The position numbers and the translations under genes were made by a program. The notes beneath the pieces were generated by a model. That model did not search any database. It was not told the DNA's origin and saw only the letters and a list, made by a program, of their open reading frames with translations. 64,000 nucleotides of DNA from Spartobacteria bacterium (lineage in GTDB: Bacteria > Verrucomicrobiota > Verrucomicrobiia > Chthoniobacterales > UBA6821): NCBI GenBank assembly GCA_947487385.1, contig CANKWU010000001.1, positions 203,421 through 267,420 of the forward strand, given 5' to 3'. Of this stretch, positions 3,901 through 64,000 are shown in pieces. Each line of letters opens with the position of its first letter. Positions within the stretch are counted from its first letter, which is position 1.

Positions 3901-5163
3901 ATGGTCTCTGGTACTTCCTTCTGCGTGAAAATTTCTCTTACCCCCATTGCCTCCTTGTCAGCACTGGTTCTGGCGATTGCCTTTCTCTCTTCCTGCAAAA
4001 AGGAGGCTCCTGAAGCTGGTCCGCGGCCTCCGGTTCCTGTGACGCTTGGCACGGTGATCCAGAAGGACATGCCCAATCACAAGGAATGGATCGGCAACCT
4101 TCAAGGTACGGTCACCTCAATGGTGAAGCCGAATGTCGCCGGCAACATCATCCAGCGTTACTACACCGAGGGAACCACCGTGAAGCAGGGCGAGCCTCTC
4201 TTCCAGATCGATCCGGCACCTTTTCAGGCGGATCTCGATCGGGCCAAGGCCGATCTTGCCACCGCGATCGCGCAGGAGACGAAGGTACAGCAGGACTTTG
4301 TCCGTGCCCAAAACCTCCTCGCCGGAAAGGTGATCAGCGTTCAGGAATTCCAGAACCAGCAGCAGAATTACCAGGCGATGGTCGCCCAGGTCGCCTCGAA
4401 GCAGGCCGCCGTCCAGTCATCGCAGGTCAATCTCGACTTCACCAAGGTGGTTGCCCCAATTGACGGTATGGCGGGACTTGCCAACTACGAGGTCGGAACC
4501 TATGTCAGTTCCTCCTCCCAGCAGCCTTTGACCACGATTGTCGCCATTGATCCGATCAAGGTGGTCTTCCAGGTGGGACAGGACGACTACCTAAGTATGA
4601 TTTCCGAAAGCCTCAAGGATCCTTCCAATGCTGCCCACCAGAGGAAGGAGAACCAAAATGCCGGAATGAGGATGATCCTCTCCGACGGTACCATCTATCC
4701 GCACAATGGCACCTTCCGCGCAGTCAACAACCAGGTCAGCACCCAGACAGGATCGATCACCGTGGAGGGTAATTTTCCGAATCCCGGAACACTGCTCAAG
4801 CCGGGCCTCTTCGCGCGCGTTCAAGCCACTCTTGGTTTTCAGAACAATGCGCTTGTCGTTCCGATTGCTTCGTTGATCACGGTCCAGAACCTTCATCAAC
4901 TCGCCGTGGTCGGCCCTGATAACAAGGTCTCCATCCGCAACGTGAACCTTGGTTTCACGACCCGTGAGGAGGCGGTCATCCTTTCCGGGATCAGCGCCGG
5001 GGAAAAGATCGTCGTCCAGGGAACCCAGAAGGTGACCGACGGATGCACCGTGGCGCCTCTTCCTACGGCCTCCCCGACTCCGGCATCTGCCACCGGCCCT
5101 GCCGAGAACGGGACGACCAAGAAGATTCCTGCTGCTAATCCCGCCCCGGCCGCGAAGTCCTGA
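3901..5163 (+). CDS. RND efflux periplasmic adaptor (membrane fusion protein), lipoprotein
   Basis: Lipobox-like FLSSC; VKQGEPLFQIDP, LDFTKVVAPIDG, TGSITVEGNFPNPGTLLKPG; directly upstream of the RND permease. Confidence 0.92.
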   Translation: MVSGTSFCVKISLTPIASLSALVLAIAFLSSCKKEAPEAGPRPPVPVTLGTVIQKDMPNHKEWIGNLQGTVTSMVKPNVAGNIIQRYYTEGTTVKQGEPLFQIDPAPFQADLDRAKADLATAIAQETKVQQDFVRAQNLLAGKVISVQEFQNQQQNYQAMVAQVASKQAAVQSSQVNLDFTKVVAPIDGMAGLANYEVGTYVSSSSQQPLTTIVAIDPIKVVFQVGQDDYLSMISESLKDPSNAAHQRKENQNAGMRMILSDGTIYPHNGTFRAVNNQVSTQTGSITVEGNFPNPGTLLKPGLFARVQATLGFQNNALVVPIASLITVQNLHQLAVVGPDNKVSIRNVNLGFTTREEAVILSGISAGEKIVVQGTQKVTDGCTVAPLPTASPTPASATGPAENGTTKKIPAANPAPAAKS

Positions 5164-5195
5164 TTACCGCCTTCCGCTCACACTAGGATCGCTTC

Positions 5196-8100
5196 ATGTC
5201 TAAGTTTTTCATCAATAGGCCTATCGTGGCCATGGTCATCGCTATCATTACGGTGATTCTCGGCGTGGTCTGCCTTGTTGGGTTGCCCGTCTCCCAGTTC
5301 CCGAACATCGTCCCGCCGCAGATCCAGGTGGCCGCCACCTATCCCGGCGCCGATGCCACCACCGTGAAGCAGGCCGTTGCCACGCCGATCGAGCAGCAGG
5401 TCAACGGCGTCGACAACATGCAGTACATGTACTCCCTGAACTCCAGTTCCGGGCAGTCCCAGCTCAACGTCATCTTCGCCAACAACACGGTGCCGACCAC
5501 CGACCAGATCCTCACCCAGATCCGGCAGGCCCAGGCCCAGTCCCAGCTTCCCCAGCAGGTAGTCAAGCAGGGAGTCAACGTCATCAAGACCGCTCCCTCG
5601 CCTCTCATCTGCTTTGCCCTCTATACCGACGACGATCGCTATGACGCCGTCTTCCTAGCCAACTACGCCTACGTCAACATCGTCAATCCTCTGACCCGTC
5701 TTACCGGCATTGCCAGTGTTACCGTCTTCGGTGCCGGCCAGTACGCCATGAGGATGTGGCTCGATCCGGCAAAGCTCGCCAACTTCAACATCACCACACA
5801 GGAGGTCTACGACGCGGTCAACCAGCAGAATAACGTTAACCCCGCGGGACAGACCGGTGCCGAGCCGGTGCCACCCGGCCAGCAGATGACCTTCACTGTG
5901 CGTGCGCCGGGACGCCTTGTGACCGAGGATGAGTTCGCCAACATTGTGATCCGTGCAAACCAAGACGGCTCCGTGGTCAAGGTGAAGGATGTCGCCCGCG
6001 TTGAGCTGGGTGCCCAGACTTACAACCTCGCCGGCCGCTTCAACGGACACCCCGCCGCCATCGTCGCCGTCTACCAGCTGCCGGGCAGCAACGCCCTTAC
6101 CGTCGCCGAGGACGCCCGCAAGCTCATGACCTCCTTCGTGCCGAAGTTTCCGGCCGGCCTGAAGTTGCGCACAGCTCTCGACACCACACTGGCCGTCACC
6201 GCCAGCATGCACGACATCGTCAAGACCCTCGTCGAGGCGATGATCCTGGTTCTTATCGTCGTCTTCCTCTTCCTGCAGAACTGGCGTGCCACCCTCATCC
6301 CGGCATTGGCTGTTCCCGTTTCATTGGTCGGCACCTTCGCGTTCTTCCCTCTCTTCGGATTCTCGCTCAATACCCTTTCGCTCTTCGGCCTCGTGCTGGC
6401 GATCGGTCTCGTTGTCGATGACGCCATCGTCGTGGTCGAGGCGATCGAGCATCACATCGAGGAGGGCCTCTCCCCAAAGGATGCGGCCGTCAAGGCCATG
6501 GAGCAGGTGACCGGACCGCTTGTCGCAACGGCCCTGATTCTCTCATCCGTTTTCGTCCCCACAGTCTTCCTTCCCGGCATTACCGGAGGACTCTACCAGC
6601 AGTTTGCGCTTACGATCTCGATTTCGGTCATCATCTCTACCTTCAACGCGATGAGCCTCAGTCCCGCCTTGGGAGTCCTGTTTTTACGTCCACGCAAGGA
6701 GGTTGGGGGACCGCTCGGTGCCTTCTATCGCGGGTTTAACCGCGTGTTCGATGCAGGTCGGGGTGGGTACCTGGGCGTCTGCTCCTTCCTCCTTCGCAAA
6801 AGCTTCATCGCTGCCTTCGTGCTGCTCGGCATGGTGGCGCTCTCCGGCTTCTTCGGTTCCAAATTGCCCGGCTCCTTTGTTCCCGAGGAGGACAACGGAT
6901 ATCTTTACGCTTTCTCCCAGCTTCCCAACGCCTCCTCCCAGCAGAGGACCGACGCAGTCTCCAAACAGGTTTCCGACATCGTCAGCAAGATTCCCGGGGT
7001 CGAACACGTGACGACCATCGTGGGGTTCAACCTGCTGAGCGGCGTCCAGACCACCTACAGCGCCTTCTATTTCATCACGCTCAAGCCCTGGGAGGAGAGA
7101 ACGGCTCCAGGTGAGGATGCCTTCAGCCTCCTCCAAACGATCAACAAGGCAATCGCCTCCGTCCCGGGAGCCATCAACTTTGCCTTTCCCCCTCCCGCCA
7201 TCCCCGGCATCGGCACATCGGGTGGCACCACCTTCATCCTTGAGGATAGGCTCGGCGTTGATCCCACTTTCTTGGAGAAAAACACCGCCATCTTCATGGA
7301 TGCGATCAAGAAGCGTCCCGAGGTCGGTTCGGTCACCACGACCTACCTCCCGTCGGTTCCCCAGATCTCCATGAAGATCGATCCCGTCATGTGCCTCATG
7401 CTCGGTGTTGATCTCAACGAGGCCTACCGCACTCTCCAGTGCTTCCTTGGAGGCATCCCGGTGAACTACTTCAACCGGTTCAACCTCCAGTACTACGCCT
7501 ACCTTCAGGCAGAGGGAGCCAGTCGTACCGATCCTAAGAACGCCTCCCTCTTCTACGTCCGAAACAGCAAGGGAGATGCAGTGCCCCTTTCGAGCCTCTT
7601 GATTGTGAAACCAATGCAGGGACCCGAGTTCGTCATGCGCTTCAATATGTTCGACTGCGCCCAGATCAACATCAACGGCTTGCCAGGCGTCAGCACAGGC
7701 CAGGTGATGAAGGCACTCGAGGAGACCTTTGCTGCCACCATGCCTCCCGGCATGGGGTACGACTATTTCGGCATGTCCTTCCAGGAGAAGCTGGCAGCGG
7801 AGGGGATTCCCCCCAGCGCGATCTTCGCCCTCTCTCTCCTCTTTGTCTTCCTGATCTTGGCGGCCCAGTACGAGAGCTGGTCACTTCCCTTCAGCGTGCT
7901 CATGAGCACCCCTGTTGCCGTCTTCGGTGCCGTGGCGATGCTCTTTGTCCGCAAGATGGACAACGACGTCTACGCCCAGATCGGTCTCATCATGCTGATC
8001 GGTCTAGCGGCCAAGAACGCAATCCTGATTGTGGAGTTCGCCAAGGACGAGGTGGAGAAGGGGAGGCCTGTCATCGATGCTGCGCTCGCTGCGGCCAAAC

Positions 8101-8312
8101 TCCGCTTGCGACCGATCCTCATGACCGCCTTCGCCTTCATTTTGGGCTGCGTGCCGCTTGCAATTGCGACCGGATCGGGAGCCGTCTCCCGCAGGATCCT
8201 TGGTTCGACAGTAGTAGGAGGAATGCTGGCCTCTACACTCATAGCGATCTTTGTCATCCCTGTCTGTTTTTCATGGTTTGAGAAGAAGAAGGTTGAAGAA
8301 TTGAAGGATTGA
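5196..8312 (+). CDS. RND efflux permease, HAE1 (AcrB/MexB-like)
   Basis: [17 protein letters not shown] start; proton-relay motifs [26 protein letters not shown]; 1038 aa. Confidence 0.96.
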
Positions 8313-8390
8313 AGGGCTTCTCTCTTCTAAAATCTCACATCGAATTACTCCTTGCCAGCAGGTGAGGGGAGGCGCATAACAAGAGCTTCT

Positions 8391-8942
8391 ATGGACAACA
8401 CATCACCTATCCCCCAGTTTCCAATTCCTTCAATCTCCCGTGGATGGTCAATTGCCGGAGGCATCGCCATGATCCTGCTAGGTTTCTTCGCGCTGGGTGA
8501 TCAGCTCGTCTCCACGGCAGCAGTTGCCACCTTCATCGGATTTATCCTGATGTTCGGTTGCGCTTTCCACCTAATCAAAGTCTTCACGACTGGGGACTGG
8601 AAGAGTCATCTCTGGTATGCCTTGGTTTCTGTTGCCTACGCAGTCGCCGGATATGTCTTCATTGCCCATCCGTTCAAGGCTGCGATCGCTTTCACCCTCT
8701 TCCTTGGTTGGGCCATCCTGATCGGCGGTATCATGCGCATCTTCTTTGCGTTTAAGATGCGCCATCACCGTGGTGCCACCTGGATTCTCTTCAGCGCCGT
8801 GATTTCTATCATCCTTGGAGGTCTGATCATCTCCCAGTGGCCAGCCACTGGTCTCTACATGCTGGGCCTTTTCCTTGGCATCGAGCTTATCTTTGCCGGC
8901 GTGGGCTGGCTGGGACTTGGCCTTTCCTCGGCCAAGAAGTAA
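8391..8942 (+). CDS. HdeD/DUF308 family membrane protein
   Basis: Six short hydrophobic segments; GLIISQWP...LGLFLGIELIFAG motif. ATG at 8391 preferred over the TTG extension at 8352. Confidence 0.82.
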   Translation: MDNTSPIPQFPIPSISRGWSIAGGIAMILLGFFALGDQLVSTAAVATFIGFILMFGCAFHLIKVFTTGDWKSHLWYALVSVAYAVAGYVFIAHPFKAAIAFTLFLGWAILIGGIMRIFFAFKMRHHRGATWILFSAVISIILGGLIISQWPATGLYMLGLFLGIELIFAGVGWLGLGLSSAKK

Positions 8943-54994: not shown

Positions 54995-56407
54995 ATGCAA
55001 CCTTGGGAGAAAAAGAAAGCTCATCAGTTCAAAAGAAAGGCTTTTTTTGCGCCCTTGTTCCTACTGGGCGATTTTCTTCAATGGGTTCTTATCTATTTAT
55101 CACTCTCCGTTGTGACAGGTGGGTATAATGTGATTACCCCAATTGCCATTGTCCTTCCGTGCACGATCTTGATGATCTCTCTCTCCTTAATTGGAGCCTA
55201 TCGCTTCCGAACCGACTTCGTTTCGTTACGCTTTGCCAGTGAATACCTTATTGTTTGCGGCTTTGCCTATGGCATCGCCGCTTTAGCACTCTATTTTGTG
55301 GCCTCGTTTGGTCCCAATCCCACCTCGAGCAGGGGTATTTTTACGGCCTCCTTCGTAATCGTTGCTATTACCTCCCTCCTTGCGAGACGGCTGTTCTGGT
55401 TCTGGACTACGAAATCCCGCAGTGCTGGAAAATTTCTCGTGATTACGGATGAGCGTTTTGGATCGGTTTTTCATCGCGATTACGTGGCCAGTAAAAAACA
55501 GCACGAAGTGCGTTATATCGCAGCTCTCAAAGGGCTTCGTGGGAAAGCAATCGCTGGGGAAGGGACCCCATCCCCTTTAGTGGAGTTGGCCCATCTCCTG
55601 CCCCATATTGATCGGGAGAGTGCTAGCGGCTATGAAGCCATCGTTGTGGCAGCAGATCTCAATGCATTGGATCCCGAGATTGCAAGTCGGCTTGCGGTCA
55701 TTCATTTCGATGAGCTACCCGTTTATACTATGGAATCTTTTTACGAGAAATACTGGTCAAGGATTCCCCTCGAAATTCTGGGGCCAGCGTGGCCCTTAGA
55801 GACAGAGTTTCTTCTCGTGCAGCACTCGTTTTACTCCTCCCTGAAGAGACTTCTTGATTTTGTGATGGCACTCATACTGCTCCTTGTAGCAGCCCCGGTC
55901 ATACTAATTGTGGTTATGTTGATCATGATCCTCGATGGATTTCCCATTATCTATTCCCAACCTAGGGTCGGAATGCAGGGGCAACCTTTCATGCTCTATA
56001 AGTTTCGCACCATGAAAGAAGGCAGCGATCAAGGGGAAAGCTATACCAGAGAAAATGATGCCCGTGTCACATTCCTAGGTTCCTTCCTCAGAAGGACGCG
56101 TCTCGACGAACTTCCTCAACTCTGGAATGTTTTTCGCGGCGAGATGAGCATGATAGGGCCGCGCGCAGAGTGGACACGACTCGTTGAGAATTATAAGCGG
56201 GAAATTCCCCATTACCATTTCCGGCATCTGGTACGTCCCGGCATCACCGGTTGGGCCCAGGTGAACTATCCCTATGGTGCTTCGCTAGAGGATACCCTCA
56301 TGAAGTTTTCCTTCGATCTCTACTACATTCGCAATTTTTCGATTAAACTTGATGCCGAGGTATTGTTAAAAACTATCTATGTGGTTCTTTTTGGTCGAGG
56401 GAGATAG
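54995..56407 (+). CDS. Priming glycosyl-1-phosphate transferase (WcaJ/WbaP-like sugar transferase)
   Basis: Four N-terminal TMs; LKRLLDF, YKFRTM, FLRRTRLDELPQLWNV..GEMSMIGPRAE, VRPGITGWAQVN. Confidence 0.93.
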   Translation: MQPWEKKKAHQFKRKAFFAPLFLLGDFLQWVLIYLSLSVVTGGYNVITPIAIVLPCTILMISLSLIGAYRFRTDFVSLRFASEYLIVCGFAYGIAALALYFVASFGPNPTSSRGIFTASFVIVAITSLLARRLFWFWTTKSRSAGKFLVITDERFGSVFHRDYVASKKQHEVRYIAALKGLRGKAIAGEGTPSPLVELAHLLPHIDRESASGYEAIVVAADLNALDPEIASRLAVIHFDELPVYTMESFYEKYWSRIPLEILGPAWPLETEFLLVQHSFYSSLKRLLDFVMALILLLVAAPVILIVVMLIMILDGFPIIYSQPRVGMQGQPFMLYKFRTMKEGSDQGESYTRENDARVTFLGSFLRRTRLDELPQLWNVFRGEMSMIGPRAEWTRLVENYKREIPHYHFRHLVRPGITGWAQVNYPYGASLEDTLMKFSFDLYYIRNFSIKLDAEVLLKTIYVVLFGRGR

Positions 56408-56460
56408 GCAGCAGGCGGGGAGGACCTTGATTCACCTTGTACTTCGGAAGATGATGTATC

Positions 56461-58074
56461 ATGGGCGATTCCTTTAAAATCCAGAACCTAACTGCTGCCC
56501 ATATGGTTCGTATACTTTCACTCCTTATCACGGGGACTGTTTGGTTCGTGGTGATTCGGATGATTCAAAACGACTGGAGAATTGATCCCCAGTACAGTTA
56601 CGGATTGCTGGTGCCGTTTCTAGTGATCGGATTGCTGATAAAGCGACGAGAGGATTGTCCGGCTCCGGAGCCCCTGGGAGTAGGTGCGTCCGTTGGTGCG
56701 GGGATTGTCATGGTTACAGCCTCTCTTCTGCTGGCAGGGGTGATTCCATTAGCCGAAGCAAATCCCGACTGGCGCCCTCTGGGTGTAGTTGCCGCATTGG
56801 CGGCGGTAACGATCACTCTCTGTCTGATCATCTTCCGAGGAGGGAAAGCGTGGCTGAAACATTATGCTTTTGCCGTGGGGTTTTTCCTGATTGCTGTTCC
56901 TTGGCCTCGCAATCTCGAGCAGTCAGTGATGTCCCATCTGATGTCGTGGAACACTGCAACGACCATTGAGATTCTCCATTGGTGCGGCTACGAGGCCGTA
57001 AGACAGTGCAATTTAATCGTCATTCCTGCGGGTATTCTGGGTATTGAAGAAGCATGCAGTGGACTCCGCTCACTTCAGAGTGGACTGATGGTGGCACTTT
57101 TCTTTGGTGAGGTCTTTCGGTTAACAGTTTCAAGGCGGCTCGCTCTTCTTCTCTTGGCCTTGATGGCTGCCTTGACGGGCAATATCTTACGCAGTTCGTT
57201 TCTTTGTATTCTGGCTTACAGGCAGGGAATGGCCTCGATCCCTTCCTGGCATGATCCTGCGGGCTTTATTGTTCTCCTCCTGAGTATTCTGATTGTTTTT
57301 GGTGTCTCTTTCATGTGGCGTTCCCGATCCAAGGAGGCCGATCGTTCCAAGAATAGGAATGGAGGATTTCTTGCCATGTCTCCAGGAGCTCCATCTAGAG
57401 CTTTGCTTTCATTAGTTCTCTTCATACTGTTAGTGCCGATGATCCTGACGGAGGTCTGGTTTCGAATCCATGATCTTCCATTTGATAGCAACTGGGGATG
57501 GCAGATTGAACCAAGACAGGGAGCGCCAGGGGTTTCGCGAGTGACGGTGGCTCCGGCTACACGTCGCATGCTTTTTTACCCACAGGGCTTCTCGGAGAAA
57601 TGGTCCGGTTCTGGAGGAGAAATTGGGCAGGTTTTTGTTTTCCAGTGGCCGACTGGCCGGACTGCTCTCCAGTCAGTCCAGATGCATAGTCCGGAAGTCT
57701 GTCTTGCCAGCATGGGGATGCATTTAGAGAAAAAGCTTTTCGATTTTAACATCAACTTCGGTGCGGGTGGGGAGTTACTGTTCCATTCATGGCTCTTCAC
57801 CCAGCAGGGGCGTCCTGTCTATGTGTTTCATTCCATTCTCGAGCAGGGTGAAGGGCCGTTAGGATCCAGCATCACCACGGATCAGACCTCAAAGGGAAGG
57901 CTTGAGAATCTCAAGATTGGCAAACGCAACAGGGGTCAGCGAATGATTGAGGTCGCTTTTTGGAATCTGCATGACGAGTCCCAAGCAAGAGGCGCTCTAG
58001 CTCGGTATCTCGGGGAGAGTTTGAGGATGACCCCAACGCAGTTCCCAGAACTTCCCCAAAAATCCCATGAGTGA
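56461..58074 (+). CDS. Exosortase fused to an EpsI-like C-terminal domain
   Basis: YSYGLLVP, IEEACSGLRSL (catalytic Cys), GNILR (Arg), WHDPAG (His); C-terminal HSPEVC (EpsI-type motif). Confidence 0.85.
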   Translation: MGDSFKIQNLTAAHMVRILSLLITGTVWFVVIRMIQNDWRIDPQYSYGLLVPFLVIGLLIKRREDCPAPEPLGVGASVGAGIVMVTASLLLAGVIPLAEANPDWRPLGVVAALAAVTITLCLIIFRGGKAWLKHYAFAVGFFLIAVPWPRNLEQSVMSHLMSWNTATTIEILHWCGYEAVRQCNLIVIPAGILGIEEACSGLRSLQSGLMVALFFGEVFRLTVSRRLALLLLALMAALTGNILRSSFLCILAYRQGMASIPSWHDPAGFIVLLLSILIVFGVSFMWRSRSKEADRSKNRNGGFLAMSPGAPSRALLSLVLFILLVPMILTEVWFRIHDLPFDSNWGWQIEPRQGAPGVSRVTVAPATRRMLFYPQGFSEKWSGSGGEIGQVFVFQWPTGRTALQSVQMHSPEVCLASMGMHLEKKLFDFNINFGAGGELLFHSWLFTQQGRPVYVFHSILEQGEGPLGSSITTDQTSKGRLENLKIGKRNRGQRMIEVAFWNLHDESQARGALARYLGESLRMTPTQFPELPQKSHE

Positions 58075-59917
58075 GATGAATCGTCCAGATCACGCGCCTG
58101 AACGAGGTTCATATCCTTCAGAATTGCCCGACTATGCCGAAGAAGTGCATCCGCAGGTTACGGAATCCGATGGTATTCACACTCAACATTCTCAACGCCT
58201 GAGCCGATGGATAGGGATGGGGGCTGTTCTTCTCCTCCTCTTGGTCCTGACTCCCTCCCTCTACCGCATGGCTAAGGAATGGCGATCCGGTGAGCTTCTC
58301 CGGAAATCCGAGAGTGCCTTCGCTATCGGGGATTCAGCTCTTGCACTCAACCTGCTTAAACAATCCCTTGCCCTATCTCCCGGAAGTCCCCGTGCCCAGC
58401 ATGCCGTTGAGCTCTACAATGCAAGGTCAGGCGATCATCCCTCGTTGAATAAACTTCTTGATCGCATGCGTTCGGGAACCTCTAGCCCTGATGAACTCCT
58501 TGGCATTGTCGAACTAGAGATAGCTTCCGGGCACCCGGAACTTGTGCAAGAAGCCCTGGGTATGCTCCCCCCTAAGTTGAGTGATGAACAGTCCCTTCGA
58601 CGCGCTCTTGCCTTGGCGTCGCTGATGGCTCAGAGCGGAGACTTTGCCAAGGCTGCCGAGAGCTGTCTTGCCAAAGCGCCCTCCTTTTCACCTGAGAGTG
58701 CTTCACACCTCAGGGTGCAGGCCGCGCTCTATCTTCTTGCAACAAAGAGTCCGGAGAGTGCGAAAAATGCCGTGGAGTTGCTGCAAAATGCTGTAAAAGG
58801 TGGGAGTAGAATCTCTCTCTCAGCTTGGCGTTTTCTTGCGAAGATCGTCTTGTCGCGACCTCAAGGTTATTCGGAGCTTCTCACTCCGGTTGAGATCACC
58901 TCGTTGATTAAATCTCTTGATTCGTTGCCCGGTCACACGGTGATCGACTCCCTCACCGCAGCGGACTTGGAGATCCTTAAGGATCCCAAGGATAGCCAGA
59001 GGATTGTGAATCATCTCAAGTCATCTTCACATAATACATCCCGGACCGAGTCGCTTGAATTTGCTCGGTGGCTCAATGCGAGGGGCTTTCATGAGGAAGT
59101 CATTGAGATTGCCGGTTCCGAGCGTCCGCTCAGGGACACGGATTGGCTTCTTGTCACTCTGGATGCGGAGACTTCCCTTGGGAATTGGAAAGAGGTTTCG
59201 AGGATGCTTGATTCACCCGCAGGGGCTGGTATTCCCGATGCAGTCAGGCATCTCTTCTTAGCTCGTGTGGCTCTGATGAACGGTAATCAGAGTGGAGCCG
59301 AGGAGGAGTGGAGGAATGTTGGGGGAGCCCTTCACTTGGAAAAGCCGGCGACTCTGGCTTATATCGCGGGCTACGAGGAACAAATCGGAGCCGTCGACCG
59401 GGCGGCGAGAACCTACCGCGAGATGGCTCAACGCGAGGGGGCAACCAGGATTCTCGGACTAATAGGCTTGATCCGGTGCCAACCGCACAACACCCCGGCT
59501 GTCCAACTCATCCCGATATACGAAGAACTCGTCTCGGCGGCTCCGGCCATGACCGATGCCCGAGGTGACCTCTGCTACCTGAAATTGCTGATCCCTGATG
59601 ATGTGGAAGAGTCTTTGAAGACGTCGGAAAAGCTCTTGGAAACGCAACCCAATAATCTTGTGCGAATCAGTGCCGTCGCACTGGGAAAGCTCAGGACTGG
59701 AGATTCCAAGGGGGCCCTTGATCTCTACAAGGGCAAGCTGATCGACTGGTCCGCAGCCCCAGAACCATGGAAAGGGGTGCGAGTGGCGGTGTTGAGAGCT
59801 AATAATGATCCCGATGGAGCGGCAAAGATTCTTGCCATGATTGATCGGAAAAACCTGAGGCCCGAGGAAGTGGCGCTAATTGCTCTCCCGGCCCAGAAAA
59901 AGAATCTTAAACCGTAA
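58067..59917 (+). CDS. Membrane-anchored alpha-helical (TPR-like) hypothetical protein
   Basis: Single TM near the N-terminus (WIGMGAVLLLLLVLTP), then Ala/Leu-rich helical repeats; overlaps the exosortase stop. Confidence 0.7.
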   Translation: MSEMNRPDHAPERGSYPSELPDYAEEVHPQVTESDGIHTQHSQRLSRWIGMGAVLLLLLVLTPSLYRMAKEWRSGELLRKSESAFAIGDSALALNLLKQSLALSPGSPRAQHAVELYNARSGDHPSLNKLLDRMRSGTSSPDELLGIVELEIASGHPELVQEALGMLPPKLSDEQSLRRALALASLMAQSGDFAKAAESCLAKAPSFSPESASHLRVQAALYLLATKSPESAKNAVELLQNAVKGGSRISLSAWRFLAKIVLSRPQGYSELLTPVEITSLIKSLDSLPGHTVIDSLTAADLEILKDPKDSQRIVNHLKSSSHNTSRTESLEFARWLNARGFHEEVIEIAGSERPLRDTDWLLVTLDAETSLGNWKEVSRMLDSPAGAGIPDAVRHLFLARVALMNGNQSGAEEEWRNVGGALHLEKPATLAYIAGYEEQIGAVDRAARTYREMAQREGATRILGLIGLIRCQPHNTPAVQLIPIYEELVSAAPAMTDARGDLCYLKLLIPDDVEESLKTSEKLLETQPNNLVRISAVALGKLRTGDSKGALDLYKGKLIDWSAAPEPWKGVRVAVLRANNDPDGAAKILAMIDRKNLRPEEVALIALPAQKKNLKP

Positions 59918-60642: not shown

Positions 60643-60665
60643 GTCCTGCTTTCGGTGTGGTGCCG

Positions 60666-60693
60666 TTTAGCCTTTAGCCTTTAGCCTTCATCC
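60666..60693. repeat. 7-nt-period tandem array (TTTAGCC)x3 plus TTCATCC
   Basis: Perfect heptamer copies at the boundary of the GC-richer GH1 segment. Confidence 0.85.
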
Positions 60694-60708
60694 TTTCATC
60701 TCTCCTCT

Positions 60709-62052
60709 TCACGGCTCCGGATATGCCTCGATGAACTTGGCGTACCACAAGGCGGAGGGGGTGGGGATGCGGTTGTGGGTCTTCTTGTCGTAGGAGAAGA
60801 GGCCGAACTGTGCGTGGTTCCAACCTTCGGTCCACTCGTAGTTGTCGACGAGGGTCCATGGGAAATAACCCCTGACATCCACTCCCTCGTTGATCGCGCG
60901 GCGCATCTGCGCGATGTGTTCTCGGAAGTAACGGATCGATTTCTGGCCGCTCTGGGTGCCGATGCCATTCTCGGAGATGACGATCGGCTTGTGGTAGCGC
61001 CCGTCGATATCCTTGAGGATGTGATAGAGACCCGTGGGGACGATCTCCCATCCGAGCTGGGTATATCCGGAGTTATGCTCCCCGCTGGGTCGGAAGATGA
61101 AGCGAATCGCGCTGGCCTGCTGTGAGTAGTAGTAGTTCACCCCGATCAGGTCGCAGGTGTCGGCCACCATGTCGAGTTGGTCGAAGTTCTGGTGCTGCAT
61201 CAGGTTGTAGACGGAGCGCGTGGGGTCGAGGAAGCGGGCCTTATTCCAGTGGGGCAGGGAATAGATGCCCATGATCAGTGCGTCAGGTCGCTCTTCCCTG
61301 GCGATCCCAGCGGCGTCGCGGAACATGTCGGCGGAGACGCGCATCGCCTTTTTGTAGGAGCCGGGACGCATCAGGAGTCCGGGGGGCCAGTGAGCGGCCA
61401 GCCATCCAAGTTGGAGGGCCCCATTAGGCTCGTTCTGCGGGATATAGATCCGGACATCCCCCTTGGTGGCCTTTACGACGCGCCGGACGTGGGCCTGCCA
61501 GGCGGTGCGGACGTCGGGGTTGAGGAAGTTGGCCTTGGTCTTGTCCTTGGGATAGAGCCAGTCTGGGAAAGTGAAGTGCCAGAGGGTAATGAGCGGCTCG
61601 ATCCCGGCCTCACGGCACTTGCGCGCCATCCCGGCATACTGGCGGAGGGCCGCCTCGTTGATGACGCCCATACGCGGCTCGATCCGTGCCCATTCGACGC
61701 CGAAGCGGAAATGATTCACTCCCAGTTTTTGGAGGGCGGCCAGATCCTTGTCGAATTCGCTCCAGGAAAAGACTCCCTCGTCACCGCGGGGAGGAGCCCC
61801 TCCCTCATCGGCAAAGCAGTCCCAATCCGTCCTGTAATACCACTTGGAACCGAGGGGGCATCCCCGGTCCTCATTCTGGAACGATGCGGTGGAGGTGCCC
61901 CACCAGAATGGCTCTTTTGGCAGTTTTTTTAGAACGATCGCCTTGGCCGGAGGCCGGTAGTGAGGAACGGGCGAGATGCATCCGCTGAAGGCAAGGGTGA
62001 GCAGAAGTAGCAGGAAAAACGTTATCTTTATCCGTAAGGTTGCTTGATGCAT
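60709..62052 (-). CDS. Glycoside hydrolase family 1, lipoprotein
   Basis: Lipobox FSGC; FWWGTSTASFQ, RFGVEWARIEP, acid/base NEP, nucleophile ISENG, DNYEW. ATG 62052 preferred over 62184. Confidence 0.9.
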   Translation of the reverse strand: MHQATLRIKITFFLLLLLTLAFSGCISPVPHYRPPAKAIVLKKLPKEPFWWGTSTASFQNEDRGCPLGSKWYYRTDWDCFADEGGAPPRGDEGVFSWSEFDKDLAALQKLGVNHFRFGVEWARIEPRMGVINEAALRQYAGMARKCREAGIEPLITLWHFTFPDWLYPKDKTKANFLNPDVRTAWQAHVRRVVKATKGDVRIYIPQNEPNGALQLGWLAAHWPPGLLMRPGSYKKAMRVSADMFRDAAGIAREERPDALIMGIYSLPHWNKARFLDPTRSVYNLMQHQNFDQLDMVADTCDLIGVNYYYSQQASAIRFIFRPSGEHNSGYTQLGWEIVPTGLYHILKDIDGRYHKPIVISENGIGTQSGQKSIRYFREHIAQMRRAINEGVDVRGYFPWTLVDNYEWTEGWNHAQFGLFSYDKKTHNRIPTPSALWYAKFIEAYPEP

Positions 62053-62087
62053 GGGACAAGCCCTAGTAGCAAGGGATCGAACGATCA

Positions 62088-63038
62088 ATGATGAAGCGCA
62101 TTTTTTCCCTCTCTGCCACGGCATTGCTGCTGACGATGGTGCAGCCGCTAAGGGCCATCGATCTGCCCGACGGCCGTCTGGCACCCGACACCCTCATGCT
62201 GAACGACGGCAGCGAGCTCCACGGCCTCATCCTCAAGAACGACGCTAAGGGGGTGATTCTCCAACAGCGCATGGGCGAGGTGACGATCCCCAAGTCAAGG
62301 ATCCGCCGGATCATGGACGAGGGAGATGCCTTGGTCTACTTCGCTGAGATCGCCGATCCGGGCAAGCTTCCCCCATGGCGGATGATCGTTCAGGACCTTC
62401 GCACCGATGACAATATCCGATCCTTCAGGCAGGTGCCCGCCACGACGATCGACAATGGTCGTCTGCGCAACATTCCCTACCTCTCCTTCAGGGTGAACAA
62501 GCGCACCGAGCTGAATGTGTACGGCAATCCCGAGGATCCGGTATGCGTGGAGTTCGGTGTCTACGGCAAGGGGCTCGCGCTGAAGCGCTTCAAGAATGTC
62601 GCTAGGGACTATCTGGCCGGTATCCTGACATCCCGGGACGAGATTTCCGCACTGTATGGGATCAGTGACCGCGGCGGTGTCAGGAAAGTCGGAAAGTTCA
62701 CCTTCGAGGTGGCCCCTCAGGATGCACCCGATTCCTACGGGGGATGGTGGATCTCGATCTATGATGCAAAACGCCTCGACCTTGCCCGTGTCTCCGATGA
62801 CGAGTATCGCAGGAACACGCTCCCCTTCCATGTGGTCAATGACTCCCGAGGCGAGCTGAGGATGGATCGCCAAAAGAACTTCGAAAAATTCCTCTCCGGC
62901 ACCACTCAGTCGTGGTCGGAAATGGTTCCTGATCTGAGGGGATTTTACCGCGACTCGATGGGTGACCTGAAGTTGCTCACCGCGAAGGCGACGGACAAGC
63001 TCAAGCAGTCCACCTCCGCCACCACGCCACGCCCATGA
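62088..63038 (+). CDS. Exported hypothetical protein
   Basis: Signal peptide; N-terminal DTLMLNDGSELHGLI...VTIPKSRIRRI beta module; ATGA-coupled to the next GH1. Confidence 0.75.
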   Translation: MMKRIFSLSATALLLTMVQPLRAIDLPDGRLAPDTLMLNDGSELHGLILKNDAKGVILQQRMGEVTIPKSRIRRIMDEGDALVYFAEIADPGKLPPWRMIVQDLRTDDNIRSFRQVPATTIDNGRLRNIPYLSFRVNKRTELNVYGNPEDPVCVEFGVYGKGLALKRFKNVARDYLAGILTSRDEISALYGISDRGGVRKVGKFTFEVAPQDAPDSYGGWWISIYDAKRLDLARVSDDEYRRNTLPFHVVNDSRGELRMDRQKNFEKFLSGTTQSWSEMVPDLRGFYRDSMGDLKLLTAKATDKLKQSTSATTPRP

Positions 63039-64000
63039 CCAAGTCCAAGACCAAGACCAAGACCAAGACCAAGTTCATCCTTCCCGCGGCCGTCGCGGCC
63101 ATCCTGACAATCCTTCCCGGTTGCGTCCTCCATCCGCTCGGCCCGCTCGACAAGGCCCCGGAGAACCGCGCGGAAAAGCTCAAGGGTTACGCCCCCTTCG
63201 CCTGGGGCATCTCCACCAGCAGTCTCCAGTACGAGAACAAGGCGGAAAAGCCCGGTGAGAAGAACTACTATGTGCGCGACTGGGACCTACTCGTTCAGCA
63301 GAAGAAAGCCCCCGTTGTGGGGGATGCCCTCTACACTTGGAGTGACTTTGACAAGGATCTCGCCGCCCTGAAGAAGATCGGCGTCACTCATTACCGCTTC
63401 AGCATCGAGTGGGCCCGTGTCGAACCGCATCCCGGCCACTACAACGAGGAGGCTGTGCAGGGGTATGTTCGTATGTGCCGGAAGCTGAAGGAGGCTGGAA
63501 TCGAGCCGGTTGTGACCCTCTGGCACTTCACCTTCCCTGCTTGGCTCACCGACCCTAAAGATAACTCCAAGACCAATTGGCTTCATCCGTTGGCCCGGGA
63601 ACGCTGGAACCTCTACGTGAAAATGATGGTTGTGGCGACGGCCCCTTACGCCACCTACTATGCACCGGAGAACGAGCCGAACGGGCAGGTTCTTACCGCC
63701 TACATCATAGGTCTCTGGCCTCCCTGCCACACTTTTGATTTTAAGGGCTACAAAGCCGCGACGATCGCCAGCGCAGACATGTTCCGTGATGCCGCGGCAC
63801 GGATTAAGAAAGTGAAGCCCTCGGCCAAGGTTCTGAGCGTTGAGGCGCTCCCTTGGTGGACACCCGCCCCACTCGATCCTGGCGGTCTGCTCTACAATAC
63901 GGTCATGCATTCCAATTTTGACCACCTCGACCGGATCTACGATGTCTGTGATATTATTGGATTTAACTATTACTACAGTCAGATGGCCGGTCCTCTGAGT
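63035..64000 (+). CDS. Glycoside hydrolase family 1, lipoprotein, 3'-partial (absent from the ORF track)
   Basis: Manual translation: MTKSKTKTKTKTKFILPAAVAAILTILPGC...FAWGISTSSLQYE...RFSIEWARVEP...TLWHFTFP...ENEPNG...GFNYYYSQ; open to the window end. Confidence 0.9.
   Translation, partial: MTKSKTKTKTKTKFILPAAVAAILTILPGCVLHPLGPLDKAPENRAEKLKGYAPFAWGISTSSLQYENKAEKPGEKNYYVRDWDLLVQQKKAPVVGDALYTWSDFDKDLAALKKIGVTHYRFSIEWARVEPHPGHYNEEAVQGYVRMCRKLKEAGIEPVVTLWHFTFPAWLTDPKDNSKTNWLHPLARERWNLYVKMMVVATAPYATYYAPENEPNGQVLTAYIIGLWPPCHTFDFKGYKAATIASADMFRDAAARIKKVKPSAKVLSVEALPWWTPAPLDPGGLLYNTVMHSNFDHLDRIYDVCDIIGFNYYYSQMAGPLS
63038..63073 (+). repeat. Hexamer tandem repeat (ACCAAG)n encoding TK repeats
   Basis: accaag-tccaag-(accaag)x4 in the signal-peptide n-region of the GH1. 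Confidence 0.9.

Follow-up and report, generated by a model that had tools for sequence, protein, structure and literature searches.

We have analyzed a stretch of 64,000 nucleotides of the contig CANKWU010000001.1 (the window from here on), from the Spartobacteria bacterium assembly GCA_947487385.1, a genome of 2.05 Mb that is 94% complete. At the right end of the window there are two genes coding for glycoside hydrolases of family 1 (GH1), here called GH1a and GH1b, and between them a gene for a secreted protein of an uncharacterized family, MID. This module is an old and vertically inherited unit of the order Chthoniobacterales. Our preferred reading, to which we assign a probability of roughly 0.55, is that it provides envelope-anchored exo-beta-glycosidases with a dedicated secreted partner, and that the favored use of the set is harvesting sugar from external glycosides. 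Three features set it apart from the GH1s compared here: export as lipoproteins throughout the clade, two anciently duplicated paralogues and an obligate partner belonging to an undescribed family. The named relatives of the window proteins and loci come from freshwater metagenome-assembled genomes (MAGs) labelled Chthoniobacterales, 'Spartobacteria' or Terrimicrobiaceae. Spartobacteria is an older class name, and several of these MAGs are labelled with it.

Both enzymes matched the GH1 family PF00232 well above its cut-off of 22.6 bits (199.9 bits and an E-value of 7e-59 for GH1a; 90.2 bits and 1.3e-25 for the part of GH1b that lies in the window), and they are 46% identical to each other. 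As had been claimed in a first-pass annotation of the window, made from the sequence alone, the two share the motifs WHFTFP, NEPNG and NYYYSQ. They also have both catalytic glutamates, the acid/base one in NEP and the nucleophile in ENG. The nine residues forming the catalytic center and the -1 subsite, Q59, H159, N207, E208, Y307, E361, W399, E406 and W407 (GH1a numbering), were invariant in all the 128 unique members of the clade described below, and in GH1a they align with identical residues of the structure 6z1h. Besides, there are eleven near-invariant residues specific to the clade, among them W158 and F162 of the WHFTFP motif. When the PDB was searched by sequence, the best matches were 6z1h and 1vff for GH1a and 1vff for GH1b, and the nearest solved structures belong to a group of short GH1s that includes 1VFF, 4R27, 6IER and 8KAP. 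Homology to solved GH1s suggests the (beta/alpha)8 barrel for both proteins. Substrate specificity cannot be transferred from such relatives at the sequence distances found here.

The beta-glucosidase equivalog TIGR03356 gave 200.8 bits for GH1a and 208.2 for GH1b against a cut-off of 478.5, and the name 'beta-glucosidase' would be for these proteins a guess rather than a finding. Actually, more can be said about the glycone. The Glu of the DNYEW motif, which binds the O6 of the glycone, is kept in 128 of the 128 clade members. In 6-phospho-beta-glycosidases the Glu of DN(F/Y)EW is replaced by phosphate-binding residues. Since this Glu is retained and the scores against the NCBIfam models of the 6-phospho-beta-glycosidases (BglA/LacG type) are far below their cut-offs of 561-686 bits (72-143 for GH1a and 59-130 for GH1b), we have discarded that assignment, and the expected glycone would be a non-phosphorylated sugar of the gluco-, galacto- or fuco-type.

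The N-termini of GH1a (..LAFSGC) and GH1b (..ILPGC) have a hydrophobic stretch before a small residue and Cys, corresponding to the lipoboxes that had been pointed out on both proteins. The lipobox Cys is present in all the 126 unique N-termini of orthologues examined. A filter combining hydropathy with G, A, S or N before the Cys was passed by 125 of them, the last one having also Gly-Cys, and in 125 of the 126 the Cys sits 22-30 residues ahead of the catalytic domain. The commonest lipoboxes were LSGC, LPGC, FSGC, LGGC and LAGC, followed at position +2 by V, I, A or T and with a loose -2 position (S, P, G, A, T or Q). The machinery to process them is encoded in the host genome, with Lgt (PF01790, 208.5 bits) and LspA (PF01252, 135.9 bits). 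This pattern suggests that GH1a and GH1b are acylated and that they act outside of the cytoplasm, tethered to a membrane. Among the GH1s that other families of the phylum encode, the 25 best matches start 5-20 residues before the catalytic domain and have no signal peptide. The host genome has a third GH1 (contig C37, approximately 4046-5593, minus strand) with about 32% identity, the NEP and ENG motifs and no signal peptide, which is a putative cytoplasmic-type enzyme. MID and its orthologues have an ordinary signal peptide.

In a maximum-likelihood tree, the lipoprotein GH1s of Chthoniobacterales (n=70) formed a single clade with 100/100 support over a long branch, and the 25 signal-less GH1s sampled from the same phylum, the best of them 34% identical, branched outside of it, which bears out the distinct GH1 subfamily proposed before. 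All the GH1s adjacent to MID fall in an a-type clade (99/100) nested in the lipoprotein clade, and the b-type GH1s adjoin MID in the family of the host and are unlinked in the other families. Because a-type and b-type each span several families, the a/b duplication is old and predates the split of the families. At locus L141, which represents one family of the order, the unlinked b-type lipoprotein gene is head-to-head with a PF00083 sugar porter and converges with a PMT_2-type glycosyltransferase (three genes, at 4505-5908 on the minus strand, 5899-7392 on the plus strand and 7402-8886 on the minus strand). A porter 60% identical to that of L141 is encoded in the host genome.

The association of MID with these enzymes is conserved across the order. 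Of 61 related genomes, 45 have both MID and the lipoprotein GH1 clade and the other 16 have neither, although these genomes are not phylogenetically independent counts. Almost every MID-positive genome has the two GH1 paralogues. In the family of the host we compared 30 loci from two genera, and GH1a, MID on the opposite strand and GH1b were found in every locus with enough flank. The other families of the order keep the divergent GH1a-MID pair without GH1b after MID. Among 80 loci from the public genome collection, the a-type GH1 was directly head-to-head with MID in 72; the eight exceptions comprise two without upstream flank, three remote relatives (two labelled Planctomycetota and one Bifidobacterium), one without GH1 in the flank and two in which the pair is unlinked, these last two genomes still encoding a-type (61-62% identity) and b-type GH1s elsewhere. 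In 107 of 110 loci (a number in which some contigs are counted twice) residue 48 of GH1a and residue 34 of MID are 239-350 nt apart. Between families of the order GH1a keeps an identity of 58-61%, and the GH1 and MID gene trees group by genus and family and mirror each other. The accessory protein co-occurring with GH1 that had been postulated is thus recovered in both the presence pattern and the trees. The first-pass annotation had named three outcomes that would speak against its interpretation (unsupported lipoprotein signals, nesting of the enzymes among cytoplasmic GH1s and no co-occurrence with MID), and we observed none of them.

Some Chthoniobacterales genomes have a second and more divergent head-to-head GH1-MID pair (L043, L044, L045, L128 and L134). 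Compared to the genes in the window, the GH1s of this second pair are approximately 51-57% identical and the MIDs 33-43%. Its GH1s take a basal position in the a-type clade and its MIDs fall outside of the core MID clade (100/99). The basal position of its members in both trees indicates that GH1 and MID diverged as a pair. In L045 the MID-like part is found within an open frame coding for 849 aa. A third conserved partner was also sought among the genes flanking 74 loci, and no other family appeared in more than 14 of them. A radical-SAM-like gene (PF04055, 22.6 bits, below the cut-off of 29.5; e.g. L094 1713-2969) that converges with GH1a was present in 14 of the 74 loci as a lineage-specific case of synteny.

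A very different explanation would be that there is no functional unit here, only ordinary beta-glucosidase genes located beside an unrelated hypothetical one, or a recent GC-rich island bounded by a heptamer repeat. The first-pass annotation had described a GC-richer segment, possibly acquired, with a (TTTAGCC)3 array marking its left edge, and the flanks do differ between genera. The module is indeed richer in GC than the genome (57.9% versus 54.8%, with a standard deviation of 2.2). This excess corresponds only to the 95th percentile of the 4.2-kb windows of the genome, and the contrast at the edge of the cluster is largely due to the GC-poor exopolysaccharide (EPS) region upstream. The array is where it was said to be. 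Yet the genome has 18 perfect heptamer arrays of at least three copies, the heptamer being its commonest microsatellite period, and the GH1a-nitroreductase spacer is a hot spot of microsatellite variation, with (TTTAGCC)2 or unrelated repeats of 7-14 nt in sister species. We have discarded the array as the border of an island, since the repeats of the spacer differ in each relative. Recent horizontal acquisition has to be abandoned as well. The module was found in six other families and in all the sampled genomes of the family of the host, except for one with a completeness of 73%, and its trees follow genus and family. Together with the exact match in presence and absence and the co-divergence of the pair, this distribution makes the absence of a functional unit very improbable.

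The conservation of the neighbors at the left (nitroreductase, exosortase and TPR protein) and at the right (D-lactate-dehydrogenase-like and OppA-like) does not reach beyond the genus, and some of them are found in only part of it. Positions 54995-59917 of the window contain a Bac_transf sugar transferase, a homologue of the exosortase EpsH and a 616-aa TPR protein, i.e. a GC-poorer region of the EPS/PEP-CTERM type. A functional link of the module to this EPS/exosortase locus or to the nitroreductase was considered, the first-pass annotation having mentioned the neighboring EPS among the possible substrates, and it was rejected because these neighbors are not kept outside of the genus, the EPS/exosortase neighborhood being present in only part of it.

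MID did not match any Pfam family, and 79 of its relatives plus fused or long ones gave no consistent or informative match. Against NCBIfam there were only sub-threshold matches of about 20 bits to N-terminal domains of Leptospira hypothetical proteins (cut-offs 43-200), and no relative was found in the PDB by sequence. Its 264 close homologues include none that is named. A profile search retrieved 436 clusters at 50% identity, most of them of about 300 aa and matching profile positions 30-250. Throughout this wider family P130, Y131, S133, G146, P151 and W220 are invariant, and the near-invariant residues include E141, N143, Y145, E155, E207, D215, W221, Y225 and R234; there is no conserved His or Cys. 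Two AlphaFold2 (AF2) models were obtained: the one from the broader alignment had a mean predicted local distance difference test (pLDDT) score of 82, with 90-98 over residues 100-260, and the other one of 71. In Foldseek searches of the AF2 models against the PDB the core had no match at E<=0.001, and the N-terminal barrel of 45 residues resembled Sm/Hfq (E about 5e-3). The comparison with the viral models of BFVD gave a single weak match (TM 0.21).

Secreted proteins of about 300 aa with the MID core are also found in Planctomycetota and other bacteria (P0264-P0385), with no Pfam family. Many of the distant members have a low-complexity linker and then a basic end motif, GRVYVRGYxRKDGTYVxxHTR, that aligns with the hairpin LRGFYRDxxGxLKLL of MID. 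In the three distant members examined (L130, L133 and L135, two of them labelled Planctomycetota) there was no neighboring GH1, and the lipoprotein GH1 clade was absent from both Planctomycetota genomes searched.

Because the invariant residues are aromatic and acidic, with no His or Cys, binding or presenting a glycoside is favored over metal- or thiol-dependent catalysis, and most likely MID is a non-catalytic protein that binds or presents the glycoside or positions GH1a. A regulatory or protective role as an inhibitor protein, as a chaperone for folding or export, or as a factor that sorts GH1a into or onto the outer membrane seems to us improbable. It would account well for the strict pairwise co-occurrence and co-divergence with the a-type GH1 specifically and for the two divergently transcribed genes sharing a spacer of at most 100 nt, an arrangement typical of partners in stoichiometric balance, and the conserved C-terminal hairpin (283-298) could dock by strand addition. 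But members of the MID superfamily are common in genomes that lack this GH1 clade, the invariant residues are located in the core domain and are aromatic and acidic, as is the case at sugar-binding sites, and MID has no resemblance to a known inhibitor or chaperone fold. A more far-reaching proposal, which we hold as unlikely, takes the MID core as a new fold and domain family present across the Planctomycetes-Verrucomicrobia-Chlamydiae (PVC) superphylum. In Chthoniobacterales it would have become the obligate second subunit of GH1, handing an amphiphilic substrate (such as a membrane or algal glycolipid, or else a glycoside of the alkyl or steryl type) to the lipid-anchored enzyme, either for scavenging or for remodelling the envelope of the cell itself.

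We compared the module with systems already described. The best solved relative of GH1b (E-value 1.3e-47), and the second best of GH1a (1.6e-50), is BGPh of Pyrococcus horikoshii (1VFF). It is the only top match that aligns with GH1a unbroken (residues 47-440 versus 7-402), and like the enzymes of the module it is a short GH1 of about 400-420 residues. BGPh prefers long-chain alkyl glycosides. It is an archaeal and hyperthermophilic protein, remote from GH1a and GH1b in sequence (166-176 bits), and we know of neither a cleaved lipoprotein signal nor a MID-like partner for it. The structure 1vff is deposited in the PDB as a beta-glucosidase, and the title of Akiba et al. (2004), as cited in PMC12369401, describes the protein as a membrane-bound beta-glycosidase. 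Another short GH1 of 414 residues, SGR_2426 of Streptomyces griseus (8KAP), aligns with GH1b in one stretch (55-442 versus 19-394). It is specific for beta-1,2-glucooligosaccharides and is grouped structurally with 1VFF, 4R27 and 6IER, a group with diverse published specificities (PMC12369401). SGR_2426 has no signal peptide and is encoded within an ABC-transporter/GH193 cluster (PMC12369401), whereas the module has lipoprotein signals and the MID partner and no such cluster. With the canonical cytoplasmic beta-glucosidases (TIGR03356; 1BGA, 1OD0) the enzymes of the module share PF00232, the NEP and ENG glutamates and all the residues of the -1 subsite, but they carry the lipoprotein signal and a linker and form a separate, long-branched clade. 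In the way they work, and only in that, the polysaccharide utilization loci of Bacteroidota are similar, since they also combine a lipid-anchored extracytoplasmic glycosidase with an adjacent and dedicated non-catalytic partner, secreted or anchored, in their case a glycan-binding protein of the surface. They belong to a different phylum, and at the module there is no conserved SusC/SusD-type transporter, regulator or further carbohydrate-active enzyme (CAZyme). MID has no similarity to known families of glycan-binding proteins. Our literature search found no paper describing the module: a metagenome-assembly study of aquatic Spartobacteria from 2013 gives only counts of GH1 genes, and a match in the Muricauda literature was discarded, as it concerned GH17 and not GH1.

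The mechanism that we propose would be as follows. Two ancient paralogous GH1 enzymes, probably retaining exo-beta-glycosidases, would be exported through a lipoprotein signal cleaved by signal peptidase II, and a linker of about 22-30 residues would tether them to one of the envelope membranes, so that they work at the cell surface or within the periplasm, cleaving from the substrate a terminal, non-phosphorylated, beta-linked sugar of the gluco- or galacto-type. MID would be their dedicated secreted partner. It would share a very short bidirectional control region with GH1a and, in the family of the host, would also be translationally coupled to GH1b. MID itself would be non-catalytic and would bind or present the glycoside, or hold GH1a at its site of action. 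The substrates harvested could be small oligosaccharides or amphiphilic glycosides of the alkyl or lipid type, external to the cell, and an MFS sugar porter would import the released hexose. Nutrient harvest comes slightly ahead of envelope remodelling because GH1 enzymes have an exo mode of action, a sugar porter gene adjoins the b-type gene in one case and the host has a porter 60% identical to that one.

The same enzymes could do housekeeping instead. The lipid-anchored GH1s and MID would then trim or remodel a glycoconjugate of the envelope of the cell itself (a membrane glycolipid, a periplasmic beta-glucan or an exopolysaccharide intermediate), maybe as transglycosidases, the sequence giving no means to separate hydrolysis from transglycosylation. 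We take this as a serious alternative, though a less likely one. The set behaves like core genes, with one MID and two GH1s in almost every positive genome, including those of 1.4-2.8 Mb; GH1a is well conserved across the families, as indicated above; and neither transporters nor regulators nor other CAZymes accompany the set consistently. The description of 1vff, the closest solved relative, as membrane-bound (in the title mentioned above) and the PMT_2-type glycosyltransferase that adjoins the b-type gene in one lineage point in the same direction. The plant SFR2 is a membrane-anchored GH1 able to remodel galactolipids. Nevertheless, no gene for glycolipid or glucan synthesis is conserved beside the module, the EPS/exosortase genes of the window accompany it in only part of one genus, and 16 related genomes, including large free-living ones, lack the set, so the envelope component involved would have to be lineage-specific.

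Several observations weigh against harvest by anchored enzymes with a dedicated partner, our preferred reading. Loci for nutrient acquisition usually include transporters, regulators or further glycosidases, none of which cluster with the module, and the adjacency to a sugar porter was seen in a single lineage. That streamlined genomes of about 2 Mb have one MID and two GH1s almost universally fits housekeeping in the envelope at least as well as nutrition. The Pro at position -2 of the GH1b lipobox falls outside of what we take to be the strict PROSITE-type pattern. Finally, the MID fold is not intrinsically a GH1 subunit, as its Planctomycetota relatives live without this GH1 clade.

GH1 is among the most studied families of glycosidases, and in bacteria its enzymes are regarded as cytoplasmic and as working alone. 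In the case described here, an entire bacterial order has retained two GH1 paralogues, predicted from their signals to be exported and lipid-anchored, strictly together with a secreted protein that has neither a family assignment nor a recognizable fold. Were MID a functional subunit, it would be a new accessory domain for glycoside processing and would open the way to a family that comprises more than 400 sequence clusters of uncharacterized function. The two-component GH1 system would be the first one, should the reading of MID as a second subunit be true. The carriers are abundant, uncultured freshwater Verrucomicrobia with small genomes, and the module may indicate which beta-glycosides they obtain from the organic matter of lakes, or else the way in which their envelope is constructed. 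In any case, the enzymes are a source of GH1 sequences far from any characterized one.

Table 1. Features of the GH1a-MID-GH1b module and its surroundings, in window coordinates
Feature	Position	Strand	Details
GH1a	60709-62052	-	Predicted GH1 lipoprotein, PF00232; 447 aa from the Met of MHQATLRIK..., start MHQATLRIKITFFLLLLLTLAFSGC
GH1a putative signal peptide and lipobox	61978-62052	-	Residues 1-25; Cys25 at 61978-61980
GH1a catalytic residues	61429-61431; 60970-60972	-	Acid/base Glu208 (NEP); nucleophile Glu361 (ENG)
GH1a-MID head-to-head spacer	62053-62087	.	35 nt between the two start codons
MID	62088-63038	+	316 aa, secreted, uncharacterized family
MID signal, Sec/signal peptidase I type	62088-62156	+	Residues 1-23; cleavage LRA/ID
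MID Sm/SH3-like beta-barrel	62187-62315	+	Residues 34-76; AF2 model
MID alpha/beta core	62370-62867	+	Residues ~95-260; AF2 model
MID conserved C-terminal beta-hairpin	62934-62981	+	Residues 283-298; LRGFYRDxxGxLKLL
GH1b	63035-64477	+	Window-equivalent positions, 477 bases beyond the window end; 480 aa, start MTKSKTKTKTKTKFILPAAVAAILTILPGC; PF00232
GH1b lipobox Cys30	63122-63124	+	Predicted GH1 lipoprotein
GH1b catalytic residues	63674-63676; 64127-64129	+	Acid/base Glu214; nucleophile Glu365, past the window end
(ACCAAG)6 in-frame hexamer run	63038-63073	+	One mismatch; codes for TKSKTKTKTKTK, n-region of the GH1b signal peptide
GH1a-nitroreductase spacer	60643-60708	.	66 nt from the GH1a stop to the start of the downstream nitroreductase; (TTTAGCC)3 at 60667-60687

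The arrangement of the genes (Table 1) agrees only in part with the two GH1s flanking MID as first described. Both adjoin it, but GH1a is on the opposite strand and divergent from MID, so that the three genes are not a co-directional trio. The ATGA coupling of GH1b to the 316-aa exported protein was confirmed, the overlap at 63035-63038 consisting of the TGA stop of MID (63036-63038) and the ATG of GH1b (63035-63037). Scans of the locus detected no sigma-70-type consensus promoter, also in the spacer between GH1a and MID, and no terminator or Rfam element. Given a spacer of 35 nt, the divergent promoters of GH1a and MID must overlap the coding ends. The hexamer run stretches the n-region of GH1b to MTKSKTKTKTKTK, a positively charged and strain-specific extension, the closest relatives beginning with MTKF..., MTRF... 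or MTMTKF...

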